Shown: positions 758-40,323 of the stretch, piece by piece
Numbering within the stretch: the stretch's first letter is position 1
Layout of the letters: every line of letters starts with the position of its first letter
Source of the DNA: Flavobacteriales bacterium
GTDB lineage: Bacteria; Bacteroidota; Bacteroidia; Flavobacteriales_F; PHOS-HE28
Reading direction: 5' to 3'
Assembly: GCA_020635675.1 (NCBI GenBank)
Contig: JACJZJ010000004.1
Coordinates: 271,044-335,043, forward strand
DNA: 64,000 bases
Translations under genes and position numbers: made by a program
Notes under the pieces: model-generated
Seen by the model: only the letters and a program-made list of their open reading frames with translations
Told to the model about the DNA's origin: nothing
Databases searched by the model: none

Positions 758-3118
758 TCAGAACCGCAATGTGTATTGCAGCACGGGGAGCAGCCCGAGC
801 TGTGGGACATCCACGATGCGTTGCTTCGTACGGTCGTAGTCCTGGTATACCGTGGTGCTTCCGCCGAGCACGTTCTGCACATCGACCTTGATCTCGTGAC
901 TGGTCTTCGGTCGACCTTCGCGGTAGGCGATCACCACGTCGAGCTTGTGCACCGCGTCCCCTTTCTCGCTCCACGCGGAAGGTGCGTCCACTTCCTCACC
1001 GGCGGCCTGGCTGGCCGCGAGATCGATCGGGGTGCGGTATTGCCCGCCGACCACGGAATACCGGAATCCTGTGGTGAGCACGCGGTCCCTGCCGGCGCGG
1101 CCGAGCTTCCATTCCTTGCCGGCGAGCACGTTGCCCACCACACCCAGATCGAAACGGGAATGGTGCCAATGGCCGTCCAATGCCTTGTATTCGGCGCTGC
1201 TCACCGAGGCAGTGGCCAGGGCATGCCATCCATGGGTGAAGAACTTCTCCACGGACAGTTCCAGACCGGTATTGTGGCCGGTGCCCTTGTTCACCAGATC
1301 ACGCGTGGTGAACCAACCGTCGTAGTTCGCCAGACAGAAACTGCTGTTGGGATCGTTCTCCACCGGCAGGTCATAGAGATACTGGTGGTAGGCTTCGACC
1401 TTCAGTTGGACATCCTCTGCCAGTTGCTGCTCATAGCCCAGGACGATGTGGGCGGCGCGTGACAGTCCCAGGTCGGCGTTGGGTCGGTATGTGGTCCCGT
1501 CCGCATCGACATCCTGCGCGAGGTAGGTCATGATCGTCTCGGTGCGCGAATGGAGACCCGCTCCGAGGCTGATGGCCCGTTCGGGCCGCGGCTGCCAGCG
1601 GACCGCCATGCGCGGCTCGATGCTGGTGCTTCCGTTCAAGGCGTAGTGGAGCGCATGCAGACCACCGGTGACCGTCCATCGTTCGGTCCAACGGTACTTC
1701 CAGCTCGTGAACGCCTGCAGCGTGGTGGCGGCGCCACGGGAATCGAGCTGGGTGACCAGTCGCTGGGCATCAGGCTCCCAGCTTTGGCCATGCATGCGGT
1801 AGTTCTCCACGGAAACGATGATCCCGTTGCGGACCTTCAGGCGCTCGTTCAACCGTGTGTTGAGCACGGTGGTGCCCCGCACGGTCCACTTGTCCAGCGC
1901 GTCGATGGCGCGGTCCTCCAGCGCCCCTTCGCCGGGTGCGGGGTCCTCCTTGTAATCGGTGGAACTCCCGTTCCCGCTCAGGCTGACGGTGGAATAGAGG
2001 TAGTTGTTCTTTCCGATGAGCAGCGTGTGCGTCAGACCGGCCACGCCCATGTAGGATCCGAAGTCGGCCCGGCTGAAGAGCGTATCCTCCACCACACCGC
2101 GATCCTCCTGCAGGATGTGACTGAGGCCACCCAGACCGAAGAGGGAGAAGGTGCCGGCGCGACCTGTCGGAAGGTGCACATGGAAGGCCCCGTCGGTGTA
2201 TTTCGGCACGCCCTGGTAGTCCACGATGCCGGCCTGGTCCAGCAGGGCCAGTGTGGAATAGCGGTAATTGACCAGGTAGGATCCGCCCTGGGCGCCGAGC
2301 GGACCCTCCGCCGTGAGGTCCGTGCCCAGCACACCCGCCTTCAGCGTGTACTCCCGCTTGTGGTCGTTGCCCTTCCGCAGACGCATGTCGAAGACCGCAC
2401 TGGTGGCATTTCCGTAATCCGCCGTGAAGGCCCCGGTGTAGAATTCGGAGTTGTCGATCACATCGCTGTTCAACACATTGATCGGCCCGCCGGTGGATCC
2501 CTCCTCGCTGAAGTGGTTCGGGTTGGGGATCTCCACACCTTCCATGCGCCAGAGCACACCCTTGGGGGAATTGCCACGAACGATGATCGTATTGTCCCCG
2601 GCCGGATCACCCGCCACGCCCGGGAAGGTGCTCACCATGCGGGCGGGATCATTGATGCCCCCGGCGATCCGGGAGGTCTCCTCCACGCTGATCTCCCGTC
2701 CGCTCAACAGGACCATGTCGTTGCGCAATTCGCCCTTCCGGCGGGCATTGGTCACCTCCACCTCCTGCATCTGCACGATGGACTCCTGCAGGCGGAGCTC
2801 CAGCACCGTCTCCTTCGCCGTGTTCACCAGGATGTTCTGAAGCCGTTGCTCCTCGTGGCCGAGCATCCGCACATCGAGGTCGATGCGACCGGCAGGTACA
2901 TCCGCGATGACGAATCGACCGTCCATATCGGTCGTGCCGCCGAGCAGGGGTTCCGATCCCACCACAACGACCGTGGCGCCGAAGAGGGGTTGATGTGTGT
3001 CGAGGTCGACGACCGTGCCGCGTACGGTGCCCTCCGCAACGGCGGGCCGGTCCTGTGCAGAGAGCACGGTCCGGGCGAGCAGCAACGCAATGGTCAGGGT
3101 GGATCGGAAGGGATGCAT
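758..3118 (-). CDS. TonB-dependent outer-membrane receptor (CarbopepD_reg N-domain + plug + 22-strand barrel); no STN domain
   Basis: Signal peptide. The GTVRGTVVD...DMDGRF stretch is the carboxypeptidase-regulatory-like domain. Plug motifs (IIVRGNSP, EGSTGGPINV). C-terminal LQYTLRF with terminal Phe. Confidence 0.88.
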   Translation of the reverse strand: MHPFRSTLTIALLLARTVLSAQDRPAVAEGTVRGTVVDLDTHQPLFGATVVVVGSEPLLGGTTDMDGRFVIADVPAGRIDLDVRMLGHEEQRLQNILVNTAKETVLELRLQESIVQMQEVEVTNARRKGELRNDMVLLSGREISVEETSRIAGGINDPARMVSTFPGVAGDPAGDNTIIVRGNSPKGVLWRMEGVEIPNPNHFSEEGSTGGPINVLNSDVIDNSEFYTGAFTADYGNATSAVFDMRLRKGNDHKREYTLKAGVLGTDLTAEGPLGAQGGSYLVNYRYSTLALLDQAGIVDYQGVPKYTDGAFHVHLPTGRAGTFSLFGLGGLSHILQEDRGVVEDTLFSRADFGSYMGVAGLTHTLLIGKNNYLYSTVSLSGNGSSTDYKEDPAPGEGALEDRAIDALDKWTVRGTTVLNTRLNERLKVRNGIIVSVENYRMHGQSWEPDAQRLVTQLDSRGAATTLQAFTSWKYRWTERWTVTGGLHALHYALNGSTSIEPRMAVRWQPRPERAISLGAGLHSRTETIMTYLAQDVDADGTTYRPNADLGLSRAAHIVLGYEQQLAEDVQLKVEAYHQYLYDLPVENDPNSSFCLANYDGWFTTRDLVNKGTGHNTGLELSVEKFFTHGWHALATASVSSAEYKALDGHWHHSRFDLGVVGNVLAGKEWKLGRAGRDRVLTTGFRYSVVGGQYRTPIDLAASQAAGEEVDAPSAWSEKGDAVHKLDVVIAYREGRPKTSHEIKVDVQNVLGGSTTVYQDYDRTKQRIVDVPQLGLLPVLQYTLRF

Positions 3119-3280: not shown

Positions 3281-3724
3281 ATGCGCTTCTCCATCCTCTT
3301 CGCCTTCTTCGCCCTGACGGCCGGCGATGGCATGGCCCAGCAATTCAAGGTCGTGACCATCGTGGAAAGCATCATCCCTGCAGGCACCGGCCGGTCGCGG
3401 ATGATCGAATCCACCAGCGACATCGATTCCGAAGCGGCCACCACAGAGCGCACCAACGGCAAGGACAGCGATCAGGGGGACGTGAAACGAGGCGATCTGA
3501 AGGTGGACAACTTCAAGGAGACCAAGCTGCTGAACTTTTTCAGCGTGGTGGGCATCAACTTCCAGAACATCGCCTCCAACGACGCGCTGATCACCGACAA
3601 GATCAACAAGCTGGCCGCCGAGGGCTGGGAGTTGGTCCATGTGGCCAGTGGTGTGGAAAGCGACGCCGGCAAGGATGACGGCCAGGGCATCTTCATCACC
3701 CGGCTGTTCTTCCGCAAGGACTAG
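3281..3724 (+). CDS. small secreted protein with DUF4177-like C-terminus
   Basis: Signal peptide MRFSILFAFFALTA. The C-terminal LAAEGWELVHVAS...GIFITRLFFRK resembles the DUF4177 GWELV motif. GC3 is strongly biased. It is the real tail of the otherwise antisense 724-aa track ORF. Confidence 0.6.
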   Translation: MRFSILFAFFALTAGDGMAQQFKVVTIVESIIPAGTGRSRMIESTSDIDSEAATTERTNGKDSDQGDVKRGDLKVDNFKETKLLNFFSVVGINFQNIASNDALITDKINKLAAEGWELVHVASGVESDAGKDDGQGIFITRLFFRKD

Positions 3725-3732: not shown

Positions 3733-5655
3733 TCAGAACCGTACCCCGACCCCCGCCCGCCAGCCGACCCAGGCGCGCGTGAGCAGGTCCGTATGCTCCT
3801 GCTGATCGAACGCCCGGTCCGCCGCGAGCGCGGAGAGCCAGGCGTGGGTGTCGGGATCGCGCCAGTTGGAGATGAGCACGTTGAGCACCGGCCCGGCCGA
3901 GACCACGAGCCGGTCCCAGAAGGCATAGCCGTAGGTAAGCTCCAGCCTGCCCACGATGTTCACGGCGTCGACCCAATACCATCCCTCATTGACCTGTTCG
4001 GCGATGAGGGCGATGTCCAGCAGACCACGCCTGCCGATCCGTGGTTCGGTACCGATGCCGTAGTGGAAAGCCCAGGTGCTGTCCTCCCCGACCGGGGGTG
4101 ACCACCCCAGGATGTTGTGGAAGGCACGGGTGCCGGTGCGCAGGGAGAGCGTGAGGGGAAGCACGTCCGTGCTGATGGCGTCCAGGCGGTGATAACCATG
4201 CAGGGCCACGCTCAGTACGCCGATACTGACACCGGTGATCGTGTCGCTGAGATTGATGAAGCCGACCTGCGAGCCTTCGCTGCGCAGGGCGAAGTTCACG
4301 GCGCCCACCTGTCCACCGCGGACCGTGCCGCTGACCGCGTTCACCCCAAAGCTGAACTGGCCGCCGGTGACCTCCCTGGCGTAGTTCGCACCGAAGCCGA
4401 TCTGGCCGCCACCCACCGTACCCAGGGCGGCGTTCATCCCGAGGGTGAACTGCACACCTTCGATGTTCCGCCCGAAGTTGAACCCACCGGAGAACTGGGC
4501 CTTCCGCACATCGCCGAGCGCCACGTTCGCCCCGCCACTGGTCTGTGAACCGTCGACATCGGAAAGTGCGACGTTCACCCCACCGCAGACCTGGGGGCCC
4601 CGCATGCGCCCCTTGGCCACGTTGGCCCCGCCCGCGATCTGCACGCCGGCGAGCGTATCCCAGACGACGTTGGCGAAACCGCCGAGCTGCAGACCCTGCA
4701 GGGAACGCATCGCGTGGTTGATGCCACCGGAGATCTGCGCACCGTGCACCTCACGGCCGACAAGGTTGGCCAGTCCCGCTAGTTGCACACCCCGCACATC
4801 GCGGGTGTCGATGTTCAATCCGAGCCCGATCTCCGCCCCTTCCACACCCCGCGCGAATCCGCAGAACACATTGAAGGAAAAGGTGTTCACCGTGGCGGCA
4901 CCCACTTCGCCGTTCGTGCCCACTCCCGGGACCAATGTCACCTGCCACGGCGCACGATGGACGAAACCGAGGTTGGCGGCCTGGTCGAATTGACCGGCGG
5001 GCACCAGCAGCCGTGCCACGCCGAGATCCTCCACCCCGCACCGATCATGCAGGCAGATCGGCTCCAGACGTTCGACCTTTTCACGCGGGCGGATCGCGAC
5101 GAACAATTCCTGGCCCATATGACCCGGAAACACAACGGTGTCGAGGTATCCCACGCGTGAGAACAGCAAGGCGGCGCCTTCCTCCTCTCCCTTCAGGGTG
5201 AGTTCGAAACGCCCGGACGGCCCGGTGGTGACGCCGTTGGAGCGACGCACCTCCACCACACTGACCCGTCCAAGGGGAACACCGGTATGCGCATCCATGA
5301 CCTGTCCGCTGAGCGGATGTCTGGTGCGGTCCTCGGTGCGCCGCGCCAGGATCAGGTGCTCACCGCTCTCGCGCATGATGATGGCCTCCGGCAGAAGCCC
5401 GCGCATCACCTCATCCACCCGGCCGCCCTGCGCGTTGACGGAGACAAGGCTGTCCTCCGGAAGGATCCGTGAATTGTAGCTGAGCCGGAAACCACCGTCC
5501 AGAGCGACCAGTTCAAGCGCACGCGCCAGACGGACATTGCCCGCCTGCACGGTCACCGTTCGCCGCAGGATGGACTGGGCCGGAAGGGCCGTCACGATCA
5601 GGAGGCCCCCCAGTACCGCCACGAACCATTGCCAACGCTCAACACCCATCGCCAT
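3733..5655 (-). CDS. STN (secretin/TonB N-terminal signalling) domain + CarbopepD_reg domain + 16-residue tandem-repeat (predicted beta-solenoid) protein; lacks TonB plug/barrel
   Basis: Signal peptide. TVTVQAGNVRLARALELV...GFRLSYNSRIL is STN-like. SGQVMDAHTGVPLGRVSV...SGRFEL is CarbopepD_reg. About 14 repeats fit the pattern G-x-Q-h-x-G-G-x-N-x-A-x4 between residues 260 and 485. The C-terminus ends in Phe. It overlaps the fecR stop by 17 nt. Confidence 0.8.
   Translation of the reverse strand: MAMGVERWQWFVAVLGGLLIVTALPAQSILRRTVTVQAGNVRLARALELVALDGGFRLSYNSRILPEDSLVSVNAQGGRVDEVMRGLLPEAIIMRESGEHLILARRTEDRTRHPLSGQVMDAHTGVPLGRVSVVEVRRSNGVTTGPSGRFELTLKGEEEGAALLFSRVGYLDTVVFPGHMGQELFVAIRPREKVERLEPICLHDRCGVEDLGVARLLVPAGQFDQAANLGFVHRAPWQVTLVPGVGTNGEVGAATVNTFSFNVFCGFARGVEGAEIGLGLNIDTRDVRGVQLAGLANLVGREVHGAQISGGINHAMRSLQGLQLGGFANVVWDTLAGVQIAGGANVAKGRMRGPQVCGGVNVALSDVDGSQTSGGANVALGDVRKAQFSGGFNFGRNIEGVQFTLGMNAALGTVGGGQIGFGANYAREVTGGQFSFGVNAVSGTVRGGQVGAVNFALRSEGSQVGFINLSDTITGVSIGVLSVALHGYHRLDAISTDVLPLTLSLRTGTRAFHNILGWSPPVGEDSTWAFHYGIGTEPRIGRRGLLDIALIAEQVNEGWYWVDAVNIVGRLELTYGYAFWDRLVVSAGPVLNVLISNWRDPDTHAWLSALAADRAFDQQEHTDLLTRAWVGWRAGVGVRF
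4203..4878 (-). repeat. in-frame tandem array of ~14 x 48-nt (16-codon) repeats inside the STN-domain gene
   Basis: Protein-level periodicity: GVQLAGLANLVGREVH / GAQISGGINHAMRSLQ / GLQLGGFANVVWDTLA / GVQIAGGANVAKGRMR / GPQVCGGVNVALSDVD and further units. Confidence 0.7.
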
Positions 5656-6598
5656 CGAGGAGGAAGGAGCCGTCCGGGCGATGCTCCACCCGCATGCCGA
5701 AGGTGTTCGCGATCACCTGCAAGACGGCGTCGATCGGTTCGTCCGCGAATGTGGCGGTGAGCCGGCAACGGCCCAGCTCCGGTGATGCGAGCGCGACATG
5801 CACCGAGTAGAGGATCGAAAGCTGTTCCACGACCTGCTCCAGGGGTGCATCATCGAATTGCAGGATCCGCTCTCCCCAACGCTGGAAGGATGCCGAACGC
5901 ATGTGTTCCAGCATGCCCGTGGTCCGACCATAGCGCGCGGTCTCTCCCGCGATCAGCACAACGGTATCCTTCGGCACCACGACCCGGACCCTTCCCGTCC
6001 GCACACGCACCTCGCGGAGGTCGGAGGTATCGTAGGCCGTGACCTCGAACATGGTACCGAGCACCGTGACCTCCATGTCCTGTGCATGCACCACGAAGGG
6101 ATGTTCCGCATCATGTGCCACCTCGAAATAGACCTTGCCCTGGACCTCCACCTCTCGCGTGCGTCCGATCCGTGCGGTGGCCTGTGATCCCTCCGCGAGT
6201 ACCATCCGACTGCTGTCCGGGAGCAGGGTGTCCAGCGAAGCATCGATCGCTGCGAACCGATCGGTGGCAGGTGCAATGAGCAGCCGCACGGCGAAAAAGA
6301 CCCCCGTGAGCACTGCTGCGGCCGCTGCCCAGGGCAGGATCCGCCGCATGCCGATGACCCGACCTCGGCCGGTGCGCATGCGTGCGGAAAGCGTCGCCCA
6401 GGCCTTGTCCACATCCACCTCAGGCGCATCCTCACCATCGGCACCCAGGGACCAAAGCACTTGCATGCGTTGAAGCTCCAATGCATTGTCCGGATGCGAC
6501 GCTGCCCAACGCTCCACCGCGGTGGTGGTGGCGGGATCCGCCTCACCGGCCACGAAGCGCGCCAGCTGTTCGCTCGCTATTTCCCCTTTCCCGTTCAC
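5639..6598 (-). CDS. FecR-family anti-sigma factor (transmembrane sensor)
   Basis: Single TM segment (AAAAVLTGVFFAV). A FecR/DUF4974-like periplasmic domain. Sits immediately downstream of the ECF sigma gene. Confidence 0.85.
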   Translation of the reverse strand: MNGKGEIASEQLARFVAGEADPATTTAVERWAASHPDNALELQRMQVLWSLGADGEDAPEVDVDKAWATLSARMRTGRGRVIGMRRILPWAAAAAVLTGVFFAVRLLIAPATDRFAAIDASLDTLLPDSSRMVLAEGSQATARIGRTREVEVQGKVYFEVAHDAEHPFVVHAQDMEVTVLGTMFEVTAYDTSDLREVRVRTGRVRVVVPKDTVVLIAGETARYGRTTGMLEHMRSASFQRWGERILQFDDAPLEQVVEQLSILYSVHVALASPELGRCRLTATFADEPIDAVLQVIANTFGMRVEHRPDGSFLLDGDGC

Positions 6599-6637
6599 GG
6601 GTCCGCATACCTATGACAAGCATCCCTTTGCATACCC

Positions 6638-7195
6638 CTATCCGTTCCACCACAACAACCAGCCGATCACCGGCAGCAGGTCGGCGAGTTCGGTACGAAG
6701 TGTCTTCAGTGCCTTGCCCATCTGGTTCTCCACGGTCTTCACCGAAATGCCGAGCCGGTCCGCGATCTCGTGGTACTTCAATCCCTCGTAGCGGCTCAGT
6801 TCGAAGACCTTCCGGCGTTCGGTGGGCAGGTCGGCGATCGCGGCCCGGACACGTGCGGCCCGCTCCGCATGGTCCGCCTCATCGACCGCCTCCTCCTGTC
6901 CCTTCTCCTGCACCTCGGAGTGAAGGGGGACCAGCCGTGCGCTTTGCTTCAATGCGGTCAGGCAGCGGTTCCTGACGGCCGTGAAGAGGTATGCCTTCAT
7001 CGAGGTCGTGATGTTCAGCCGGGCGCGGTCCTCCCAGAGCTTGAAGAAGAGCTCCTGGACCAGGTCCTCCGTGCTATCGCGGTCCTTGAGGTACTGATAC
7101 GCGAAGGCGCAGAGCGGTCGGTAGTGCGCCCGGAACAGGGCTTCCATGGCGCTTTCGTCACCGGCGGCGATCCGTTGGAATTCCTCTGCGCTCAT
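6638..7195 (-). CDS. RNA polymerase ECF-type sigma-70 factor
   Basis: Sigma70 region 2 (DLVQELFFKLWE) and a region 4 helix-turn-helix (YEGLKYHEIADRLGISVKTVENQM). Confidence 0.9.
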   Translation of the reverse strand: MSAEEFQRIAAGDESAMEALFRAHYRPLCAFAYQYLKDRDSTEDLVQELFFKLWEDRARLNITTSMKAYLFTAVRNRCLTALKQSARLVPLHSEVQEKGQEEAVDEADHAERAARVRAAIADLPTERRKVFELSRYEGLKYHEIADRLGISVKTVENQMGKALKTLRTELADLLPVIGWLLWWNG

Positions 7196-7220
7196 GAACG
7201 CGGCCGAAGATAGCGGGGCT

Positions 7221-10200
7221 TCAGCGCAGGAGCAGGATCGCGCCCGACTGCGTTCGGACCTCGCCGTCCGCGCCGATCACATCAAGCGCATAGAAATACG
7301 TGCCTTCCACCAGGCGTTCGCCGGAAATGCCACCTCGGCCGTCCCAGGCCACATGGGCAGCCTGTCGTTCGAGAACACGTTCGCCCCACCGGTTGAAGAT
7401 GGACAAGTGCAAGGCGGCGCCATCCGGAGCATCCAATTCGATGATGTCGTTGTTGCCGTCGCCGTTCGGTGAGAACACGTTCGGCACCGCGACCTCACAA
7501 GGACCGAAGGTGACGTTCTGCGTGCCGCTCACTCCACAGCCATCGGCATCGAGCGCCTGGAAGGAATACGCCCCATCCTCCGTAACGGTCAATGTCCCGC
7601 CCAGATCCCCAGTGCTCCAGAGCACGTCGGAGAGGTCATCCGGAAGAACGATGGTGTATGCAGCTCCCGCACAACCCAGGACCGGTTCGAAGTCGATGAC
7701 CAGCCCGGGCAGGACGATCAACGTGTCCATTGCAGGATCCCCATTGCAGCCCGCAAGTTCCGCGACACAGCTGTATACCCCGGCCTCCCAACCGTCCAAG
7801 GGTCCCAGCTCCACGGATGGGCCGAGTATCGTGCCCACGGGCGTGTTCCAAATCGTTCCGGCGCCGGGCTCGACCTCCGCAGTGAGCGTGATCGTGCCAC
7901 CCACGCATGCCTGCCAGGGGCCATCGAGCTGGGGCGGACCGGGGCGGGGGTATACGGTGATCTGGACCGGTACGGGCTGGCCGTTGCAGATCGCGTCGCT
8001 CTGGGACACATAGAAGATCGTGTCGTTGACCAAGGGCCCCACGGTGAGCGGACCGCCCGTGCCGATCGGCTGACCGGATCCCGGATCGGTGAACCATTCG
8101 ATCAGACCGGAGCCCATGGCATCCAGATCCACATGGTCTCCCGCGCATGCACTGGTATCCGACACCGTCAACGGTTGCGCGAACGCATGTTCTTCCACGA
8201 TCACGACATCGCTCGTATCCGCGCAACCCAGATCGTCGAGTACGATCACCTGGTAAGCTCCTGGTCCCGTGACCTGTAGGAACTGGGACGGTACGGCGAC
8301 CGGCTCCCAGAAGTAGAATGCCTGTCCCGGCAGGGCCTCCAACAATGTGGTGTCGCCGGGACACAGGGTGATCGGTCCGGGATCGAGGACCTCCGCATCG
8401 GCCGTTCCGGCAAGGACCGTGATGTGCGCCAGATCCACGATGCCGCATGAAGTGATCGAACAGGTATAGGTGCCCGGGTCGGAGATGACCTGCGACAGGG
8501 CACTACCGGAAAGCGGTGGCAGCCATTGAATGGCCGTGGCAGCGGGTGCCACAACGGTCACGGTGACGAGTTCACCGGCGCAGAGCACATTGTCCTCCAT
8601 ACCCGTGTCCAGGTAAGGCGTGCCGTACTGCCCGGTCATGACGGATGCAGCGCTTACGGCGCACCCCTCGGCACTCACCATGTCCACACCGTATTCGCCC
8701 GGCTCCTGCACGTAGATCGATGCGGACGTATCCGGAAGAACGCCATCCGGCCCGTACCATTGGAATCCGGTCCCGGGCTCCAGCACGGTGAGCAGCACGG
8801 AATCTCCCGGGCAGACCATGCCATCGCTCGGTTGCATGGTGATGGTCGGTGGGAAGGGGGTATCGACGAACACGATACCGGGAGGCGTCGGCCAGCCGCA
8901 GCCGATGCCCTGATCGTAATGCAGGGCCTGGTAGAAGAAAATGCCAGGCAGATCGACCAGCGCGGTATCCGGGGTCCCGAAGACACCCGCCAGATCGGTC
9001 CCCGACCAGATCACGGAATCGCAGTCCATACAATTCGAGAGGAACAGGAGGACCGTATCCCCCTGGCAGATCAGCTGGTCGCTGGGAGGATCGAAGGTGG
9101 GCAGGGTGACACGGAAAACGAAGATGCTGTCCGAGGCGGAGAAGAAATACTGCTCCGACCCGCATGGCGCATTGCTCACGCTGATGTTCACCGTGAACGG
9201 GACCCATCCGTCCGTGAAAGCGCCGACGGACCAGGAGATGGAATCCGATGCGTAGACGGTGCTCGGCAGGCAGCCCAGATCGGTGTTGGCCTGTATGGTG
9301 GTACCGGTCGGCAGGTCCACCGGCACCCCGTTCTCGTACCACGTGATGGTCAGCGTACCTCCCGTGCAGCCGATCAGGTCGCACATCACCACCGAATCCT
9401 GCCCGAGGGGCACCCCCCCGTAATAGAATTGGAAGTCGGCGCCTGTCAGGTCCGGGATATCGAGCGCACCGCCATAGATCGCGGGTATGCTGTTCACCGC
9501 TCCGCATCCGGCCGCATTGAAAACGGAGATGGTATAGAATGCCGTCGTGTCGGCCCAGACCGTATCGCCGGGCACAGGCACGCCGTTGACATACCACTGC
9601 AAGCTGTCCACACCGATCAAGGTCGACGGCCATATGGGAACGGGTGGACCACAGATCTGGATCGGCACTCCCTCGAACAAGGCGACGTCCACGTTGATGC
9701 CCAGACCGTCCGTCAACAACACCGTGGGATACGGGGACACGGTCACGTGCACCGAGTCCGTGAACGCAGGACATCCGCCAGGCACGGTGATGGAACAGCT
9801 GTACCAACCCGTGGATGTGGGCGTGATGGTGGGCGTGGTCTCCCCGGTGTTCCAGTGGAATTCGAGCGCGGGACCATTGTGCGCCGGATGGGGCGTGCCC
9901 GCCTGGGACCATTCCGAGAATGTCTCCACGTTGAGGAATGAGGGTGTTCCTCCCGGTGCGGGGGGATAGCAGATCGTGACCGAGTCCTGGCAAGGCAACA
10001 GGTCGTTCGCGAGAATGCAGGGCGTGAGCGCGTCACGCACGCATGCACCACCCTGTTCGCGTTGCCAGAAGTCGTACGGAGCTCGTCCGTCGACGAACGC
10101 CCTGGCCACGAAACCATCCTGCTGACCGTTCGATGCCAGTGCGTCGAAGGACCCGTACTCCGGATCATCGCAATAGATCGGCAGGCCACCGTTCACGGAT

Positions 10201-11600
10201 GAGGCAGGGACCGTGCCCGGCCATACCAGACCGCCGGATGGGAAGATCAGGTGGTCCGCGTAGGAACCACTGAACACCAGCTCCCCATCCAGCGTCCAAA
10301 GAATGCCGCCTGCGCGCTTCGCGTCCTGCCCACCGAACTGCTGCGCCTGTGTGAACTGGAGGTCATCGCCGTGGAACCGTGCGATGAAAAGGTCCTGCTG
10401 ACCTGTAGCCGTGAACGGACCGGTCCCATAATGGTCCTGCATGCCACTGAACGCGCACTGGAACGTACCGAGCATCGCCAGACTGTCACCGGCCAGCGCG
10501 ATACCGCCCACGGAGACAGGATGATCCGAACCGATGGACACAGCGCTCAACAGCTGGCCATCCGGATCGGTGCGGAGCACATAGCAGGCATGGTCGCCGT
10601 CCATGGGCACGACGTCGGGCTGATCGTCCAGGTAGAACAGATCACCGCGGGCGTCGCCGGCGAGCAGCAGATCACCGCCAGGCGCGATCACTAGGTCGCG
10701 CACATGGGTGAACAGGGCACCACCGTAACGCAGGAACCATTGTTCCTGCCCCGCGGCGCTGTACTTCACGAGGAAGGTGGCGTTGTAGATGCCGTTGGGA
10801 TGGGGCTGATCGAAGGTGATGGTGTCACTGAACTGACCTGTCACGTAGATGTCTCCAACAGGGTCCGATACCACATCGATCGCGCGGTCGGTGTACTTCG
10901 CGGCACCCTGTCGCACCCAAAGCAGGGTACCGGACTGGTCGTAGCTCACGATGAACACATCGAAGCCGGGCATCAACGTCAATGGGTCGGGCATGCTGGT
11001 GATCGACGTGTTGTCGAACCACATCTGGCCCTTGAAATCACCGGCCACGGTGACCTGTCCTGCGGGGGAAACGGTGATCCCGTACGGTCGTTCACCGCCC
11101 GCCGTGCTTCCCGCGGTGTTCAACCAGATACGCTGTCCGCTCGCTCCATCGAGCTTCGCCACGAAAACATCCGGAGTGCCTTGAGCTGAATACACCAGTG
11201 AATCGAACAGAACGGCCGTGCCCATGAACTGCCCGCAGACAAGGATGCTGCCGTCCGTTGCCGGGAAGATCCTGGTGCCGCGATCGATCGCATTGCCTCC
11301 ACCGGTCACGAGCCAGTCCAGGGTGCCGTCCGGCTCCCATTTACCTACGAATACATCCCGTTGGCCTGCGGATTGGAAGGCCATCCCCCCCACGGTCATC
11401 GTGGCGCTGAACTCACCGGTCGCGATGATGCTCCCGCCTGGATCGATCCGGATGTCGGCCACGTGGTCGGCGCCAAGACCACCGATGTCGATCGCCCAGT
11501 GGTCCTGGGCGATGCCATGTGCGTGCAACAAAAAGATCACAATAGGAGCGATGCAAACGCGCGACACCCTCCCCGATCCGAAGCAATGGTGACGTTTCAC
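7221..11600 (-). CDS. giant cell-surface adhesin-like protein: SBBP beta-propeller repeats + multiple Ig-like (CxGD..LL) repeats + T9SS type-B C-terminal sorting domain
   Basis: N-terminal signal peptide. Repeated D.G...DVFVAK-type SBBP units. The C-terminal VPNVFSPNGDGNNDII...GTYFYALDV matches the gliding-motility C-terminal domain (type B CTD). Confidence 0.85.
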   Translation of the reverse strand: MKRHHCFGSGRVSRVCIAPIVIFLLHAHGIAQDHWAIDIGGLGADHVADIRIDPGGSIIATGEFSATMTVGGMAFQSAGQRDVFVGKWEPDGTLDWLVTGGGNAIDRGTRIFPATDGSILVCGQFMGTAVLFDSLVYSAQGTPDVFVAKLDGASGQRIWLNTAGSTAGGERPYGITVSPAGQVTVAGDFKGQMWFDNTSITSMPDPLTLMPGFDVFIVSYDQSGTLLWVRQGAAKYTDRAIDVVSDPVGDIYVTGQFSDTITFDQPHPNGIYNATFLVKYSAAGQEQWFLRYGGALFTHVRDLVIAPGGDLLLAGDARGDLFYLDDQPDVVPMDGDHACYVLRTDPDGQLLSAVSIGSDHPVSVGGIALAGDSLAMLGTFQCAFSGMQDHYGTGPFTATGQQDLFIARFHGDDLQFTQAQQFGGQDAKRAGGILWTLDGELVFSGSYADHLIFPSGGLVWPGTVPASSVNGGLPIYCDDPEYGSFDALASNGQQDGFVARAFVDGRAPYDFWQREQGGACVRDALTPCILANDLLPCQDSVTICYPPAPGGTPSFLNVETFSEWSQAGTPHPAHNGPALEFHWNTGETTPTITPTSTGWYSCSITVPGGCPAFTDSVHVTVSPYPTVLLTDGLGINVDVALFEGVPIQICGPPVPIWPSTLIGVDSLQWYVNGVPVPGDTVWADTTAFYTISVFNAAGCGAVNSIPAIYGGALDIPDLTGADFQFYYGGVPLGQDSVVMCDLIGCTGGTLTITWYENGVPVDLPTGTTIQANTDLGCLPSTVYASDSISWSVGAFTDGWVPFTVNISVSNAPCGSEQYFFSASDSIFVFRVTLPTFDPPSDQLICQGDTVLLFLSNCMDCDSVIWSGTDLAGVFGTPDTALVDLPGIFFYQALHYDQGIGCGWPTPPGIVFVDTPFPPTITMQPSDGMVCPGDSVLLTVLEPGTGFQWYGPDGVLPDTSASIYVQEPGEYGVDMVSAEGCAVSAASVMTGQYGTPYLDTGMEDNVLCAGELVTVTVVAPAATAIQWLPPLSGSALSQVISDPGTYTCSITSCGIVDLAHITVLAGTADAEVLDPGPITLCPGDTTLLEALPGQAFYFWEPVAVPSQFLQVTGPGAYQVIVLDDLGCADTSDVVIVEEHAFAQPLTVSDTSACAGDHVDLDAMGSGLIEWFTDPGSGQPIGTGGPLTVGPLVNDTIFYVSQSDAICNGQPVPVQITVYPRPGPPQLDGPWQACVGGTITLTAEVEPGAGTIWNTPVGTILGPSVELGPLDGWEAGVYSCVAELAGCNGDPAMDTLIVLPGLVIDFEPVLGCAGAAYTIVLPDDLSDVLWSTGDLGGTLTVTEDGAYSFQALDADGCGVSGTQNVTFGPCEVAVPNVFSPNGDGNNDIIELDAPDGAALHLSIFNRWGERVLERQAAHVAWDGRGGISGERLVEGTYFYALDVIGADGEVRTQSGAILLLR

Positions 11601-11655: not shown

Positions 11656-14600
11656 TCATCGGAGAATGGTGAAGTATCCCCTCAGCGTGGTCATGTGGCC
11701 TTGGACATCGCGTACTTCGAGCACATAGTAGTATGTACCGTCCGGCACTGGCTCGTGCGTGCTGTCGTAGGTCACATCCCAAGGCACGTTGACAGGATCG
11801 CCCGAATGGACCAACACACCCCAGCGATCATAGATCCTGACCTCCCCACCGATAGCGCCCACAAGGCCCAGGGAGAAGGTATCGTTCGTGCCATCCCCGT
11901 TCGGGGTCACCACGTTCGGCGCGACCGGAGGACAGTCGATCTCCTGCACGAGCAGCGTGTCGGCGGTCGGGCAGCCATTGCCATCGAATACGGAAACGCT
12001 GAAGGTCCCGCCGTTCTGGACCGTGATGCTCGTGGTGGTATCGCCGGTATTCCAGATCGGACCCGAATAGCCCGATGGGACCTCCAATACCAGTACCGAT
12101 CCGGAACAGAGCGTCATATCAGCACCCAGATCGAAAGGGGTCGGTGGATACACTTCGAGGTAGACGCTGTCCGCTGCGCCCGTACAGCCGTTCACCGCCG
12201 GCACGATACCATACCAGCCCTCATCCGACGGTTGCGCAGGACCCACCACGAGCACCGTCCCGGAATAGCCCCCGATCGGTGTCGACCAATCCACCGCAAG
12301 GCCCGCGGGGCCTTGCACTGACAACGTATCCACGGCATCCAGACAGAGATGGCCCGGTGCGATGAGCACCACATCCACCGGAACAGGCACCACGTTGACC
12401 GCGATCGACAACGGCTGACCGGTACAGCCCATGTCCTCCTGGACCAGGTAGACGAACAAGCTGTCCGTCGGTGCACTGATCACGAGGTTGCCGCCCATGC
12501 CCAGTGGGATCTGCAGTGCCGGGTCCGCATACCAGATCAGGCTCCCGCTGCCAATGGCCTCAAGCATGGCATCAGCACCCTGGCAGATGGTCACATCCTC
12601 CCCTTCCACGGGAAGGGTCGGTGTCAGCATCGTCAAGTACAGATCACCCTGAGCCGCACATCCCAACGGATCGGTGGCCGTCACCCCTACCACGCCCTGT
12701 TGATCGGTGATCAGGAAAGGTCCCATGCTTCCATCGGACCATTGGGGATCCGTGTAACCAACTGGAAGGTCGAGATAAAGAGTGGAACCCGGGCACAAAG
12801 CAGTGTCCGCACCCAGGTCGATCGGTGCCGGCTGATGCACGTATAGATGAACACTATCCGCCGCGCCTGTGCATCCTGCGATACCGGCGATAGCGATGTA
12901 CCAACCCGAATCCGAAGGTCCCAAAGGTCCAACTTGCAACGTATCCATGGCGAACAGGCCCTGCGGTGTATTCCATTCCACCAGGAAGGGTGAAGGCACC
13001 ATGGTCACGAATTGTACCGTTCCTCCTTGACAGACCGTATCGGAGACCATCGCCAGGTCGATATCAGGTGGCTGCACCACGTTCACCACCACGGGCCAGG
13101 CCGGGTTGGTGCACGCACTGTCCGATCGCACCAAGTAGAGCATCAAGGTGTCCATCGGCATACCCAGATCAAGTTGCGCCCCGAACCCCATCAATTGGGT
13201 GAGCGCACTGTCCGCATACCAGGCCAGGTCCCCAGGGGCCGTCTCCTCCAACACGACCGGATCGCCCGCACAGACGGTGATATCCGAGATGGTCAACGGT
13301 CCGCCCATATCATGAAGAGAGACCAGGACAGCCGCACTGGTATCGGTGCACCCGTTGCCATCCAAAGCGACCAATGTGTAGTTGCCGGGTTCGGTGACCG
13401 TCAAGGTGCTTCCGAAAACGGCTCCGGGCATCCAGAGGTAGGCCGCCTGACCACCTTGTGCGAGGAGATCGAGCGTATCACCCGGGCAAAGGGTGAAGGG
13501 ACCCGGGTCGACGACCTCGGCCTGGGCGGTCCCCATGATGATATCCACGCTCAACAGCGTGGTGATCCCACAGGCCTGGACGCTGCAGGAATAGGTGCCG
13601 GGTTGGTCGACCAATTGCTCGAGGTCGCTGCCGCTCAGGGGTGCATCCCATGCGAGCGAGGATGCTCCCGTGGTGACCACCTGCAGAAGAACGGGATCCT
13701 CATCGACGCAAAGCACACCGTCGGGCAACACGTTCAGGAACGGCGTTGCATATCCAGTGACGAGGATCGGATCCGAAATGAGGTAGCAACCATTGGTATC
13801 GATCAGTTCCAGATAGTACTCACCTGGCCATGTCACGTCGATCGAGTCGTTGTTGATCGCGATCTGCCCAATGGGTCCATACCAATCGTAGCTACCCAAT
13901 GCGTTGGTATAGACCGTGGCAATGGAATCCGGGCAAATGATACCATCGGATGGAAAAACGTCCAGCTCGGGCACATCCGGGAATTGGATCACATGCCAGG
14001 CCGTTTCCGAGAAGGAACATCCGTTCGTGTCGACGACCGTACCGGTCACTTGATAGAAGCCTCCGCCCAAGGCAAGCAGACTATCGCTCCATTGCGCGAG
14101 GATCCCACCTCCCGACCAGGCAATGGCGTCGCAGCTGTCACAGGCGGCCACCAACAATGCCGTATCCGAGGGGCATATCAGGTCGGGCGCGTCCAACACG
14201 ATATCCACCGGTGTGGCCGGGTACAGGTGGACATGAATACTGTCCTCGGCGATGTCAGGCAGCTGCAACGAATCCGAACCACAAGGACCGTTGAACACAA
14301 TAACGCTGGCCCAATCATGGCTCCACCCATCCGCGTTCGCGGCCACGGGCGCGGCCCAAGGACCCGGGTCCAGGGAAAGGTGTACACCACCGTCGATGAT
14401 GTACACATACTGCAGGCCATTGGGCGGTGTATAGGGTGATCCGTTCAGGTACCACGTGGGCGTGACCAGAACATTCACGCCCTGGTAAGGACACAGGTCG
14501 AGGGAATCGTTCTGATCGGTGTCCTGGGGATAGCTGATCACAAGTTCCACAGTCATGTTCGGAATGGCCAGAGTGGGCAGATCGATCACTTGGACATGAT

Positions 14601-16668
14601 TCTGGGTGGTACAACCGAACGGGGTGACCATGGTGAACGTATAGGTACCACCGGTATCGACCACCAGCGAATCATCGAACACCTGTCCCCCAGGCCAATG
14701 CCAAAAGAAGGTGGTGGCGGTGTCCGCGTTGCTGCACCATAGCAGCGCACTGTCCGGATCGCAAATGCTCGCCTGCCATGGCAATGGCGAATCGTTCACC
14801 GGTGTCACGTCATCCGAGAGCAGGGGCTGCGCCGGCCAGGGGTGCACCGCCACATGGATGCTATCGCTCAGGACGAGGCAACCGCTGCTCGATGTACAGG
14901 TGACCGCATACGTGCCCGTGGTGTCCACATAAAGAGAGTCGGTCGTGTCACCCGTATTCCATGCGAAGTCCAGATCGGGACCGACGAAGAAGAGACGGTG
15001 ATCGATGTGGAAAGAGAACGCAGGATCGATACCGATGATCGTTCCGCCGCAGACACTGATGGTGTCCGGACAGGAGAACGCCATGGGACCCTCGCCGAGG
15101 CACAACCCACCCGGCATGTAGCTGCACGGTGGGCCATTGCGCTCCCACCAGTCATAGGGCGCCCTACCTGGTACGTAACCGCGCGCGATGAACCCATCCT
15201 TCAATCCATTGCTGGTATCGGCGGCGAAATTCCCGTAGTGGGGGTCGCCGCAGTATCCCGACGGGTTCGGCGTCATGAGGAGATGCGGACCGCTGAAGGA
15301 GGTGATGTCCGCGGTGAAAACGTCCTTGCACGGAAATACGATCAGGTCCTCATAGCTGCCGCAGAAGACCGGTGAGCCATCCAGAAGTGTGGTGATCTGA
15401 CCGGCGAGCTTTTCCTCCCGCCCACCGAATTGCTGACCACCCATGACGTAGAGACTGTCCAGATCGTGCTGAAGGAGGAACAGGTCCTGAGGGCCCGTCG
15501 CCATCCACTGTCCAGTGTGGGTGCTATCCACCCTGCTGGTGAAGCTGCAACTGAACTGGCCCAGCACGCTTACGATACCGTTGCGCTCATCCAAGGCCCG
15601 ACCACTGATCAGGCCCTCGGAGGTGACCACCGTGTCGGCCGTCAATTGGCCGTTGGCGTCGACCCGGAGGAGATAGTACGCATAGGGAGCGCCCGCGGAG
15701 ATCAGGTCGGGAACGCTGTCCAGGAAGATCATCGTCCCCTGCAGATCACCGACCAGGAGCAGATCGTCCATGCTCGACCATTGGATGTCGCGCACATGGT
15801 CGAAGACCGCACCGCCCACTCTCCGGAACCACACCTCGTTGCCGGCAGGATCCAGCTTGAGCAGAAAGGTCGCATTGTACATGGCGTTCGGATGGGTGGA
15901 CACGAACTGGATCGTATCACTGAACTGACCTGCCACGTAAACGTTACCGGCTCCATCATGCACCACGTCGATCGCGCGGTCGGTGAACTTCGCGCTGCCC
16001 TGCACCACCCAAAGAGGTGTGCCACCCGCTGCATAGGAGGCGATGAAGACATCGACGCTTGGATCAAGTGAATTGGGGTCCAGCATGCTTGTGAGCGAAC
16101 TTCCCGCGATGTCCGCGGTCCCGCGAAACTCCCCGGCCATGGTGACGCCACCGCCAGGTGCGATGCTCACACCATAAGGACGGTCGCTCGACAGGGCACC
16201 CCCGCCCCTTGTCGCCCAGACCAAGTTGCCGGTGCTCGCATCCAGAAGGGCCAAAAAGATGTCGGGGCCACCGGCTGACGTGAGCGACTGCCCCATCAGG
16301 TCCGCGGTGAACATGAATTCGCCGACTACGGCGACCTGGCCGTTGCCAACAGCGAGCTTGATACCGCGATCGATCCCAGGCCCCCCACCCTGTCTGAACC
16401 AGATCACTTGGCCGACGGGCGACATTTTCGCAACAAATACATCGATGCCCGCGCTGGACTGATGGACCACTCCGCCGAATGTGATACTGCCACTGAACTC
16501 TCCTGTGAGGTAGATGTCACCCGCGGCATCAGACTTCACATCCGACACGTGATCGTTTCCCGGGCCACCGATATCAGTTGCCCAAAATGTCTGTGCCTCG
16601 ACCATCGCCACTCCTGCAACCTGCAAAAGCATGCATAACAGCACCCGATGAATGGCGTTCGGACCCAT
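11656..16668 (-). CDS. giant cell-surface adhesin-like protein, paralog of the 7221..11600 gene (SBBP + Ig-like repeats + T9SS type-B CTD)
   Basis: Same architecture as its neighbour. About 50% identity in the SBBP region. The CTD is NVVTPNGDGTNDTF...GTYYYVLEV. Confidence 0.85.
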   Translation of the reverse strand: MGPNAIHRVLLCMLLQVAGVAMVEAQTFWATDIGGPGNDHVSDVKSDAAGDIYLTGEFSGSITFGGVVHQSSAGIDVFVAKMSPVGQVIWFRQGGGPGIDRGIKLAVGNGQVAVVGEFMFTADLMGQSLTSAGGPDIFLALLDASTGNLVWATRGGGALSSDRPYGVSIAPGGGVTMAGEFRGTADIAGSSLTSMLDPNSLDPSVDVFIASYAAGGTPLWVVQGSAKFTDRAIDVVHDGAGNVYVAGQFSDTIQFVSTHPNAMYNATFLLKLDPAGNEVWFRRVGGAVFDHVRDIQWSSMDDLLLVGDLQGTMIFLDSVPDLISAGAPYAYYLLRVDANGQLTADTVVTSEGLISGRALDERNGIVSVLGQFSCSFTSRVDSTHTGQWMATGPQDLFLLQHDLDSLYVMGGQQFGGREEKLAGQITTLLDGSPVFCGSYEDLIVFPCKDVFTADITSFSGPHLLMTPNPSGYCGDPHYGNFAADTSNGLKDGFIARGYVPGRAPYDWWERNGPPCSYMPGGLCLGEGPMAFSCPDTISVCGGTIIGIDPAFSFHIDHRLFFVGPDLDFAWNTGDTTDSLYVDTTGTYAVTCTSSSGCLVLSDSIHVAVHPWPAQPLLSDDVTPVNDSPLPWQASICDPDSALLWCSNADTATTFFWHWPGGQVFDDSLVVDTGGTYTFTMVTPFGCTTQNHVQVIDLPTLAIPNMTVELVISYPQDTDQNDSLDLCPYQGVNVLVTPTWYLNGSPYTPPNGLQYVYIIDGGVHLSLDPGPWAAPVAANADGWSHDWASVIVFNGPCGSDSLQLPDIAEDSIHVHLYPATPVDIVLDAPDLICPSDTALLVAACDSCDAIAWSGGGILAQWSDSLLALGGGFYQVTGTVVDTNGCSFSETAWHVIQFPDVPELDVFPSDGIICPDSIATVYTNALGSYDWYGPIGQIAINNDSIDVTWPGEYYLELIDTNGCYLISDPILVTGYATPFLNVLPDGVLCVDEDPVLLQVVTTGASSLAWDAPLSGSDLEQLVDQPGTYSCSVQACGITTLLSVDIIMGTAQAEVVDPGPFTLCPGDTLDLLAQGGQAAYLWMPGAVFGSTLTVTEPGNYTLVALDGNGCTDTSAAVLVSLHDMGGPLTISDITVCAGDPVVLEETAPGDLAWYADSALTQLMGFGAQLDLGMPMDTLMLYLVRSDSACTNPAWPVVVNVVQPPDIDLAMVSDTVCQGGTVQFVTMVPSPFLVEWNTPQGLFAMDTLQVGPLGPSDSGWYIAIAGIAGCTGAADSVHLYVHQPAPIDLGADTALCPGSTLYLDLPVGYTDPQWSDGSMGPFLITDQQGVVGVTATDPLGCAAQGDLYLTMLTPTLPVEGEDVTICQGADAMLEAIGSGSLIWYADPALQIPLGMGGNLVISAPTDSLFVYLVQEDMGCTGQPLSIAVNVVPVPVDVVLIAPGHLCLDAVDTLSVQGPAGLAVDWSTPIGGYSGTVLVVGPAQPSDEGWYGIVPAVNGCTGAADSVYLEVYPPTPFDLGADMTLCSGSVLVLEVPSGYSGPIWNTGDTTTSITVQNGGTFSVSVFDGNGCPTADTLLVQEIDCPPVAPNVVTPNGDGTNDTFSLGLVGAIGGEVRIYDRWGVLVHSGDPVNVPWDVTYDSTHEPVPDGTYYYVLEVRDVQGHMTTLRGYFTILR

Positions 16669-39099: not shown

Positions 39100-40323
39100 A
39101 TGGAAGAAGCACTTGACCCCATCGAGGAAGCCATCGCCGACATCCGTGCCGGCAAGGTGGTGATCGTGGTGGACGATGAGGACCGTGAGAACGAGGGGGA
39201 CCTCCTCACCGCCGCCCATAACGCCACACCGGAGGTGATCAACTTCATGGCCAAGCACGGGCGCGGACTGATCTGCACCCCCCTGACCGAGGAACGTTGC
39301 GAAGAATTGGGGTTGGACCTCATGGTGAGCGACAATACCGCCCTGCACAACACCCCGTTCACCGTAAGTGTGGACGTGAAGGGCCGTGGTACCACGACGG
39401 GTATCTCGGCCAGCGACCGCGCCAGGACCATCGAAGCCCTGATCGACCCGACCACCCGCCCCGACGACCTGGCCAGACCCGGGCACATCTTCCCGCTCAA
39501 AGCCAAGAGGGGCGGTGTACTCCGACGCACGGGCCATACCGAGGCAGCGGTGGATCTGGCCCGCCTGGCCGGTCTCGAACCCGCCGGGGTGATCGTGGAG
39601 ATCATGAACGATGATGGAACGATGGCCCGTTTGCCGGAGCTGCGGACAATGGCTGACCGGTTCGGGCTCAAGTTGATCTCCATCGCGGACCTCGTTGCCT
39701 ATCGGATGCGCACGGAAAGGCTGATCGAACGTCAGGTGGAGGTGAAGCTGCCTACCGAGCATGGGGACTTCCAATTGATCGCCTACAGACAGACCACCAC
39801 CGATGAGGAGCACCTCGCGTTGGTGAAGGGGGAATGGGCACCCGATGAACCGGTCCTCGTCCGCGTGCACTCCTCATGCGTGACGGGCGACATCTTCGGC
39901 AGCCATCGCTGCGACTGCGGCCCGCAGTTGCATGCGGCCATGCGCCAGATCGAAGCGGCCGGAAAGGGCGTTCTCGTCTACATGCAGCAGGAGGGCCGGG
40001 GGATCGGCCTTGTGAACAAACTGAGGGCGTACAAGCTGCAGGAGGAGGGCCACGATACCGTGGAGGCCAACCTGATGCTCGGATTCGACATGGATGCCAG
40101 GGACTATGGTGTAGGTGCCCAGATCCTGCACGATCTCGGAGTACGCCGCATGCGCCTGCTCACCAACAACCCACGGAAGCGGACGGGGTTGATCGGCTAC
40201 GGGCTGGAGATCGTGGAGAACCTGCCCATCGAGGTGGAGCCCAATGAACACAATGCGGGCTACCTCCTCACCAAGAAGCTCAAACTCGGCCATCAGCTGA
40301 GCCTGGGACGCAGGGGTCATTGA
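39100..40323 (+). CDS. ribBA: bifunctional 3,4-dihydroxy-2-butanone-4-phosphate synthase / GTP cyclohydrolase II
   Basis: DHBP synthase motif ([13 protein letters not shown]) and GTP cyclohydrolase II Zn site (CDCGPQL). The start is the internal ATG MEEALDP. Confidence 0.92.

Follow-up and report, generated by a model that had tools for sequence, protein, structure and literature searches.

Which function may a short, glycine-rich tandem repeat have in a protein that is encoded directly behind a sigma factor and its anti-sigma factor? This question is raised by a locus of a Flavobacteriales bacterium (GenBank assembly GCA_020635675.1, contig JACJZJ010000004.1), of which we analyzed positions 271,044 to 335,043 of the forward strand. 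This stretch of 64,000 nucleotides is called the window in the following, and all coordinates refer to it. An earlier note, made from the sequence alone, had described in one of its open reading frames (ORFs) an unassigned 16-residue repeat in about 14 copies, fused to a signaling domain. To our knowledge, FecR-type cell-surface signaling is understood only for TonB-dependent transducers, in which ligand binding and pulling of TonB on the plug provide the input. The repeat analyzed here is a named but uncharacterized one, and it stands in a previously undescribed, very widespread signaling architecture: It is homologous to the LA_2272 repeat, has a defined place in the domain order of an exported protein, and is encoded in an operon with strict linkage to sigma and anti-sigma genes and with a DNA motif shared by fecR and a neighboring receptor gene.

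Periodicity and conservation of the repeat

3733..5655, minus strand: gene of the repeat protein, 640 amino acids (aa); ORF with 265 full-length homologs listed and an AlphaFold2 model with a mean pLDDT of 87

The region in which the repeat had been noticed (4203–4878) corresponds to aa 260–485 of this ORF. Identity autocorrelation of the protein gave sharp maxima at lags of 16, 32, and 48 residues. Within aa 260–485, 59 of 210 residue pairs at lag 16 were identical, compared with a mean of 19.7 (sd 4.1, maximum 37) in 20,000 composition-preserving shuffles (z = 9.7), and the flanking parts of the protein did not have the lag-16 peak. Using G-x-Q as anchor, units start at residues 257, 273, 289, 305, 321, 337, 353, 369, 385, 400, 416, 431, 447, and 461. 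The unit at 257 is degenerate, and the tandem array covers aa ~257–474 with 13–14 copies of the pattern G-x-Q-h-a-G-G-x-N-h-a-x-g-x-h-x. The repeat with its ladder of glycine, glutamine, and asparagine is therefore real, and the three example peptides quoted in the earlier note were found in the protein. The period is less strict than had been stated: The first eight units have 16 residues, followed by units of 15, 16, 15, 16, 14, and 14 residues, so that a length of 16 is kept throughout only in the first half.

The consensus over 1,158 16-residue units from 120 homologs was G95-[VGA]-Q100-[VIF]-[AS]-[GF]-[GA]-x-N99-[VLI]-[VAT]-x-[GDR]-x-[VLM]-x, with G1, Q3, and N9 being conserved to ~95–100%. 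The mixture of 16- and 15-residue units is maintained family-wide, and the copy number ranges from ~10 to 19 in Flavobacteriales orthologs. An alignment of the repeat region of 16 orthologs (A3) was gap-free with 75% column identity, and 52 sequences could be aligned without gaps across the whole repeat. Also, residues specific for single units are invariant (H314, W332-D333-T334-L335, and M351). Because the orthologs align without gaps and these residues do not vary, the units must be old and each of them individually constrained. In agreement with this, Tandem Repeats Finder detected no repeat on the DNA level, and a repeat visible only on the protein level points to an ancient origin. No paralog of the repeat protein is encoded elsewhere in the 64-kb window. 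The window has a GC content of ~65%, and the hundreds of full-length homologs belong to the minus-strand frame; the plus-strand ORFs overlapping the repeat region are by-products of the high GC content.

Relationship to the LA_2272 family and distribution

The earlier note had found no named family for the repeat, which can no longer be maintained. NCBIfam model NF047436 (LA_2272 family surface repeat) gave 20.7 bits with the full protein and 22.2 bits with the repeat segment, values that narrowly miss the curated cutoff (25 bits), and NF047437 (VC2662 family) gave 18.5–22.2 bits, compared with a full-length equivalog cutoff of 140 bits. Among sampled relatives, 65 of 75 matched NF047436 at E ≤ 0.01. 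In the opposite direction, the repeat profile A3 retrieved members that pass NF047436, namely P0190 with 166 bits, P0244 with 53 bits, and P0215 and P0230 with 48 bits each. A profile alignment of A3 with P0190 by hhalign extended over 201 columns, including the N-x-x-W-D-x-L unit (probability 98.85%, E = 4e-17). By these profile comparisons, the repeat is a divergent branch of the NCBI-named LA_2272 repeat family, with which it shares a G-h-Q-h-x-G-h-x-N-h... unit of 15–16 residues. It differs from the LA_2272 family in having a signal peptide without lipobox instead of the LA_2272 lipoprotein N-terminus, and by the addition of an STN domain, a CarboxypepD_reg-like domain, a probable C-terminal barrel, and a sigma/FecR operon. 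Accordingly, the lipoprotein model NF047435 (LA_2272/LA_2273, cutoff 30 bits) did not match, and the N-terminus has no lipobox cysteine.

Pfam holds no model for the LA_2272 repeat, and no Pfam family was found in the repeat segment or the C-terminus at E ≤ 10, although the HMMER filters drop most matches above ~0.1. Within this limit, DUF4097, which the earlier note had considered as a possible family of the repeat, did not match the repeat segment either. The note's exclusion of hexapeptide, pentapeptide, and bactofilin repeats agrees with this result and with the search of PDB sequences, in which the family profile found no left-handed hexapeptide beta-helix (LbH). No paper on structure or function of the repeat was found; the literature on LA_2272, LIC11664, and VC2662 consisted of mentions in lists and one VC2662 double mutant without phenotype. 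In a bioinformatic survey of 2008, LA2272 was threaded onto pertactin (1dab) (PMC2387172).

The phyletic spread and the domain partners, for which a profile search had been proposed, were addressed by searching A3 against 1.84 billion representative proteins. The search yielded 5,877 clusters (50% identity) at E ≤ 1e-3, of which 1,124 remained at E ≤ 1e-30; besides STN and CarboxypepD_reg, ankyrin and caspase domains occur as partners. Among the best 150 of the 5,877 matches, most proteins have 600–750 aa, a repeat beginning near residue 230–250, and the layout STN, CarboxypepD_reg, repeat, and barrel. A minority of 388–553 aa lacks STN and is composed of a signal peptide, the repeat, and the C-terminal domain of the long forms. 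These short forms indicate that repeat plus barrel is an independent module. In protein P0190 (866 aa, MCP4137197.1, from a metagenome-assembled genome (MAG) named only 'bacterium'), ankyrin repeats are enclosed by two repeat blocks, and a barrel is missing. Each of its blocks terminates in ...EGAIP(F/V)xPxxNxSxxF. Caspase (Peptidase_C14) domains were seen in two other relatives. The ankyrin and caspase pairings indicate that the repeat joins quite different partners outside the Bacteroidota-type operons; cluster names of the distant members were 'hypothetical' or 'ankyrin repeat' only.

Domain architecture of the repeat protein

The domain order is signal peptide, STN, CarboxypepD_reg-like domain, linker, predicted solenoid, and probable C-terminal barrel, with the following positions:

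5341..5559, minus strand: STN (secretin/TonB N-terminal) domain, aa 33–105; Pfam STN below cutoff, relatives, model, Foldseek match to PilQ N0
5092..5322, minus strand: CarboxypepD_reg/transthyretin-like seven-strand domain, aa 112–188, of the kind called NTE in SusC proteins; Pfam, PDB profile, Foldseek
4960..5091, minus strand: linker, aa 189–232, with low-confidence residues 193–204, the invariant C201-x3-R205-C206, and then two short helices capping the solenoid; pLDDT and DSSP
4204..4959, minus strand: predicted beta-solenoid, aa 233–484, with canonical G-x-Q...N units at aa 273–474 (4234–4839); periodicity, two strands per unit, pLDDT 93–96
3736..4203, minus strand: C-terminal domain, aa 485–640, a probable small outer-membrane beta-barrel; DSSP, Foldseek, invariant residues

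The fusion of the repeat to an STN domain, claimed in the earlier note, is supported by several lines of evidence, and the gene always follows genes for an ECF sigma factor (extracytoplasmic function) and FecR. In the isolated N-terminus of the protein, the Pfam STN match was weak (E = 0.007, 16.6 bits, cutoff 28.4), while 36 of 75 relatives matched with E-values down to 2e-10, and one homolog is annotated by NCBI as 'STN domain-containing protein'. In the AlphaFold2 model, the region has a beta-alpha-beta/beta-alpha-beta-beta fold that was matched by Foldseek to the PilQ N0 domain, and a profile search of PDB sequences grazed the FecA signaling domain (1zzv) at E = 0.9. For the following domain, Pfam PF13715 reached 28.8 bits at aa 115–172 (cutoff 32.2), and CarbopepD_reg_2 was matched by 64 of 75 relatives. 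Profile matches to SusC NTE domains in the PDB were found with E = 5e-7 (9hfj), 1e-5 (8aa4), and 1e-3 (6ytc), and Foldseek matched 5aq0 with a TMt of 0.79.

The linker motif C-x3-R-C (aa 201–206; 5038–5055, minus strand) is invariant in 60 Flavobacteriales orthologs and missing in distant relatives. Its two cysteines could form a disulfide in the periplasm. On reading the linker (aa 189–232), which includes the disordered stretch 193–204, no TonB box of the DEVVV or DxxxV type was recognized; no scoring tool was used.

The C-terminal domain of ~155 aa has eight long antiparallel strands (aa 488–639) and no helix in the AlphaFold2 model, and W629, G631, and the terminal F640 are invariant in the 60-sequence alignment A1. 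With Foldseek, it matched Ail, OmpX, OmpA, OmpW, NspA, OprF-N, and designed 8-strand barrels (E 0.02–0.1, TMt 0.3–0.65, probability up to 1.0). In the model, the periplasmic turns have 4, 7, and 3 residues and the outer loops 5, 8, 9, and 28 residues, and these lengths fit periplasmic termini of the predicted barrel. Since the N- and C-terminus of a small barrel with an even number of strands both lie in the periplasm, we infer that the solenoid, the CarboxypepD_reg-like domain, and STN are all periplasmic.

Operon structure and conservation of the gene order

6638..7195, minus strand: ECF sigma-70 factor, 185 aa, first gene of the operon; Pfam Sigma70_r2, Sigma70_r4_2, and Sigma70_ECF, NCBIfam TIGR02985 with 163 bits, above cutoff
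5639..6598, minus strand: FecR-type anti-sigma factor, 319 aa; Pfam FecR, FecR_C, and DUF4880
758..3118, minus strand: TonB-dependent-receptor-like protein, 786 aa, with CarboxypepD_reg and Plug and without STN; Pfam, conserved downstream neighbor

The repeat gene is third in an ECF sigma-FecR-X operon, and its start overlaps with the end of fecR by 17 nt. A scan with one genome per species gave 77 related loci, all of them from Bacteroidota MAGs, mostly Flavobacteriales and some Bacteroidales and Prolixibacteraceae. In all 64 loci with enough upstream DNA, the sigma and FecR genes are located directly upstream on the same strand, including relatives with 26–32% identity. One locus (L062, Flavobacteriales MAG HK-STAS-BACT-60, JACJZI010000014.1) is 99% identical to the window. 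A phmmer search with the N-terminal part (STN and CarboxypepD_reg) in 80 loci found only orthologs.

In nearly all loci that extend far enough, a CarboxypepD_reg and Plug receptor of 786–790 aa without STN is encoded downstream in the same orientation. In many of them it begins 60–90 nt past the stop codon of the repeat gene, with the promoter motif described below in between. Within 10 kb downstream, no such receptor was found in three loci (L007, L076, and L077). In four distant loci (L076, L077, L079, and L080), a short paralog with signal peptide, repeat, and C-terminal barrel, and without STN or CarboxypepD_reg, follows the long gene ~1.9–2.8 kb downstream. Its position right after the long gene suggests that the two forms may act together.

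A promoter-like motif shared by fecR and the receptor gene

By phylogenetic footprinting, a bipartite element (A/G)TAGGGGTAT-N13-(T/C)GTCAT was detected, which is present twice in the window:

6613..6638, minus strand: ECF-promoter-like motif GGGGTAT-N13-TGTCAT in the gap between sigma gene and fecR, 15 nt before the fecR start codon
3149..3174, minus strand: second copy of the motif, GGGGTAT-N13-CGTCCT, 30 nt before the start codon of the receptor gene

These were the only two matches of the pattern GGGGTW-N11-15-YGTCNT in the 64 kb. In the related loci, the gap between sigma gene and fecR contained the strict pattern in 48 and a looser one in 54 of 63 cases (background 0.038 per kb), and in 21 of 67 loci the strict pattern also preceded the receptor gene. 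The motif is kept in loci down to 26–32% protein identity and is essentially absent in front of the genes for the sigma factor, the repeat protein, and the CHU_C proteins described below. Its spacing and the GTC core of its downstream box resemble ECF-type promoters with their -10 elements. The co-encoded ECF sigma factor probably uses the motif as its promoter, as judged from sequence conservation and position, and the receptor is a probable member of its regulon. A TTCTGA sequence upstream of the receptor gene was considered as -35 box and rejected, as it is the end of the repeat gene (…G-V-R-F-stop). A scan for sigma-70-type promoters and terminators gave nothing above chance, but Bacteroidota promoters are outside its scope.

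Upstream of the sigma gene, CTACTTTCG(GCC) was observed in ~26–30 of 65 loci (~7196–7220 in the window). We take CTACTTTCG to resemble the Bacteroidota housekeeping promoter box TAnnTTTG. A housekeeping-like box at this position would mean that the sigma gene is expressed constitutively, and fecR and the repeat gene in a sigma-dependent manner.

Predicted structure of the repeat

The full-length AlphaFold2 model was calculated from the 60-sequence alignment A1. A model of aa 228–486 alone (pLDDT 93.2, pTM 0.82) gave the same two-strand rung, consisting of a strand of 7–8 residues, a G-G turn, a strand of 4 residues, and a turn of 3 residues. The all-beta fold with one rung per unit that had been suspected is thus predicted with high confidence. 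Foldseek comparison of the solenoid model with 350,542 PDB chains, the check that had been recommended for the repeat segment, gave nothing significant (best E 0.046, TM ~0.15, root mean square deviation > 11 Å), so that there was no confident match to LbH or another solved repeat fold. The non-significant neighbors were nearly all beta-helices, mostly left-handed hexapeptide proteins (GlmU, LpxA, LpxD, YdcK, and PglD). The right-handedness suggested in the earlier note gained no support from them. We read this as a solenoid-like local structure in the model, with a geometry that matches no solved fold; the repeat most likely forms a rod-shaped beta-solenoid, as far as the prediction can tell.

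With the LbH proteins GlmU, LpxA, and LpxD, the repeat shares the all-beta solenoid, as far as predicted, and aliphatic residues at regular, inward-type positions. It differs from them in a turn of 16 residues (6+5+5) instead of 18 (6+6+6), the lack of a Hexapep (PF00132) match, the TM of ~0.15, and the lack of an enzymatic context. Other short-period beta-solenoids are the 16-residue repeats of ice-nucleation proteins, the 14-residue beta-roll of the YadA head, and the RTX beta-roll with 2 × 9 residues. They have in common with the repeat a rung of 14–18 residues, few strands per turn, glycine at turns, and polar ladders. The repeat is without the motifs of RTX (GGxGxD calcium site), ice-nucleation proteins (AGYGSTxT), and the YadA head (NSVAIG). 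None of these three solenoids was among the top 50 Foldseek matches, in which an unrelated Flavobacteriaceae ice-binding protein appeared at E = 1.8.

Neighboring genes

Between the repeat gene and the receptor gene, a small secreted protein of 147 aa without Pfam family (MRFSILFAFF...) is encoded on the plus strand (3281–3724), convergent to the repeat gene and with the stop codons 8 nt apart. At this position, many related loci have a gap of 60–90 nt or a different gene of ~220 aa. Homologs of the 147-aa protein are encoded near the cluster on the opposite strand in seven loci (L032, L040, L048, L051, L062, L065, and L073). Directly upstream of the sigma gene, two genes on the minus strand (7221–11600 and 11656–16668) code for giant proteins of 1,459 and 1,670 aa. 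They have Ig_7 domains and the CHU_C C-terminal domain of type IX secretion. In many related loci, a CHU_C protein gene adjoins the sigma/FecR/repeat cluster, either upstream or downstream; no PorP/SprF-like partner gene was noticed. Elsewhere in the window, TamB (40317–44678), a homolog of topoisomerase IV/gyrase subunit A (54082–57018), and a gyrase B family protein (57987–59927) are encoded, all on the minus strand. These ordinary chromosomal genes agree with an origin of the window from the chromosome of a Flavobacteriales MAG.

Proposed function and alternative explanations

In outer-membrane transducers, the STN domain binds the FecR-type anti-sigma factor at its C-terminal domain in the periplasm and governs the proteolysis of this factor (PMC11637429; PMC7782687 for SusC proteins). 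By analogy with FecA/PupB/SusC-type transducers, we infer that the STN domain of the repeat protein docks on the periplasmic C-terminal domain of the co-encoded FecR. The units of 16 (or 15 and 14) residues would build a rigid beta-solenoid with one coil per unit and ~14 coils, having a length of ~65 Å if the rise is the usual 4.8 Å per coil. Exported via its signal peptide, the protein would be anchored in the outer membrane by the small C-terminal barrel, and the solenoid would hang into the periplasm and carry the CarboxypepD_reg-like and STN domains at its tip. The repeat protein may then be a plug-less, probably TonB-independent partner in cell-surface signaling that controls the release of the co-encoded ECF sigma factor, which would drive fecR, the repeat gene, and the gene of the STN-less receptor from the shared GGGGTAT-N13-(T/C)GTC promoter. 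As to the input, our best guess is that the protein reports on the condition of either the co-regulated receptor or the outer membrane, via unit-specific conserved residues of the solenoid surface. The unit-specific invariant residues suggest an additional role of the solenoid in docking, with the receptor, the short paralog, and FecR as candidate partners. To such an outer-membrane-anchored, periplasmic solenoid stalk presenting STN to FecR, which is the reading we prefer, we give about an even chance. A wider proposal is made tentatively, with the chances somewhat against it: The very large Bacteroidota family might form a new class of transducers, in which FecR is controlled by a plug-less outer-membrane protein with STN at the end of a periplasmic 16-residue-per-turn solenoid without solved counterpart, the length or conserved surface of which would inform sigma about the condition of a partner receptor or the outer membrane.

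Several points weigh against the stalk. The STN and CarboxypepD_reg matches of the protein itself are below the Pfam cutoffs, the predicted barrel was assigned with Foldseek E-values of 0.02–0.1 and has no Pfam model, the geometry of the solenoid was taken from AlphaFold2 models only, its length is an estimate, and AlphaFold can over-regularize repeats. There is neither a plug nor a recognizable TonB box that could pass a signal to STN. The variation from 10 to 19 copies among orthologs argues against a ruler of fixed length. The promoter function was deduced from the motif alone, and its -10-like box ends only 15 nt before the start of fecR. Finally, the word 'surface' in the NCBI family name disagrees with a periplasmic solenoid; no experimental basis for the name was found.

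This name would suit a different topology, in which the solenoid is displayed on the surface as an adhesin-like passenger, after export through the C-terminal barrel in the manner of an autotransporter. The classical type Va layout has a beta-helix and, behind it, a C-terminal barrel with phenylalanine as the last residue, and the threading of LA2272 onto pertactin points in the same direction (PMC2387172). However, a domain of ~155 aa with ~8 strands is too small for a 12-strand translocator with linker helix, Pfam Autotransporter did not match, and P0190, a member of the Leptospira type, lacks a barrel altogether. The N-terminal STN together with the obligatory FecR partner (64 of 64 loci) requires a periplasmic N-terminus. 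Because the barrel is small and the partner obligatorily periplasmic, we consider a surface passenger very improbable. Hardly any credence is left for the periodicity being a compositional artifact of Gly/Ala/Val-rich, high-GC coding, or for the region being a contracted LbH acyltransferase domain. The GC content of ~65% could favor the artifact, and the aliphatic unit positions 4, 10, and 15 with their 6-5-5 spacing as well as GlmU, LpxA, and LpxD as top Foldseek neighbors recall the hexapeptide pattern. The shuffles, however, never came near the observed lag-16 signal, which refutes the artifact, and the register is kept across hundreds of homologs. Hexapep found no match at E ≤ 10, all Foldseek matches were non-significant (E ≥ 0.046, with the TM and deviation given above), and the protein is exported and encoded in a signaling operon.

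The remaining alternatives concern the input. The repeat protein might be an adaptor for the downstream STN-less receptor, which would sense and import a ligand and be contacted by the repeat protein that supplies the missing STN. The solenoid would then be a docking surface rather than a passive stalk, with the contact in the outer membrane or at the periplasmic face of the receptor, so that this explanation refines the stalk and does not replace it. The receptor gene following in nearly all loci, often after 60–90 nt and with the shared motif in between, fits such an adaptor, as do the unit-specific invariant residues, which point to a defined binding surface. The three loci without receptor within 10 kb downstream do not fit, nor do the distant loci in which the short paralog with repeat and barrel, lacking STN, takes the position of the receptor. 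We regard the adaptor as possible, though rather unlikely. Less probable still is a repeat that itself binds a ligand, such as a periplasmic glycan, a peptidoglycan fragment, or a lipid, and thereby alters the engagement of STN with FecR. Conserved unit-specific loop residues including His, Trp-Asp, and Met speak for such binding, and the 'DTL' unit is retained even in distant relatives and in P0190. Against a ligand sensor, no similarity to any known binding module was detected by Pfam, PDB profile search, or Foldseek, and apart from the receptor and the CHU_C proteins, the neighborhood contains no conserved enzymes or transporters that would name a ligand.

Comparison with TonB-dependent transducers

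If the stalk presenting STN to FecR is correct, FecR switches of Bacteroidota can receive input by a second route with a different mechanism, and the repeat protein would be a clean system for asking what the STN-FecR contact alone does. Also, a first hypothesis on structure and function would become available for the LA_2272/VC2662 repeat proteins of Leptospira and Vibrio, so far named but unstudied. The repeat itself offers a 16-residue solenoid geometry without significant PDB match, and its family comprises thousands of clusters. An ECF classification paper does not describe the architecture of the repeat protein.

With FecA/PupB/FoxA/SusC-like transducers, the protein shares the STN domain, which is a probable one here, the outer-membrane location, which is predicted here, and the adjacent genes for ECF sigma factor and FecR. 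A sigma-dependent promoter predicted before the transporter gene is likewise common to TonB-dependent transducers and this locus, and a CarboxypepD_reg-type domain is shared with SusC proteins. In the latter, the NTE is stated to precede STN (PMC7782687). The repeat protein has the probable STN domain followed by CarboxypepD_reg, the reverse of the order stated there. The main difference from TonB-dependent transducers is the absence of Plug and of the 22-strand barrel, as no Plug or TonB_dep_Rec Pfam match and no TonB box were recognized. The repeat protein is an STN-bearing partner without plug or large barrel, yet tied to sigma and FecR in every related locus examined, in which the predicted solenoid and the barrel of ~8 strands would fill the place of plug and barrel.

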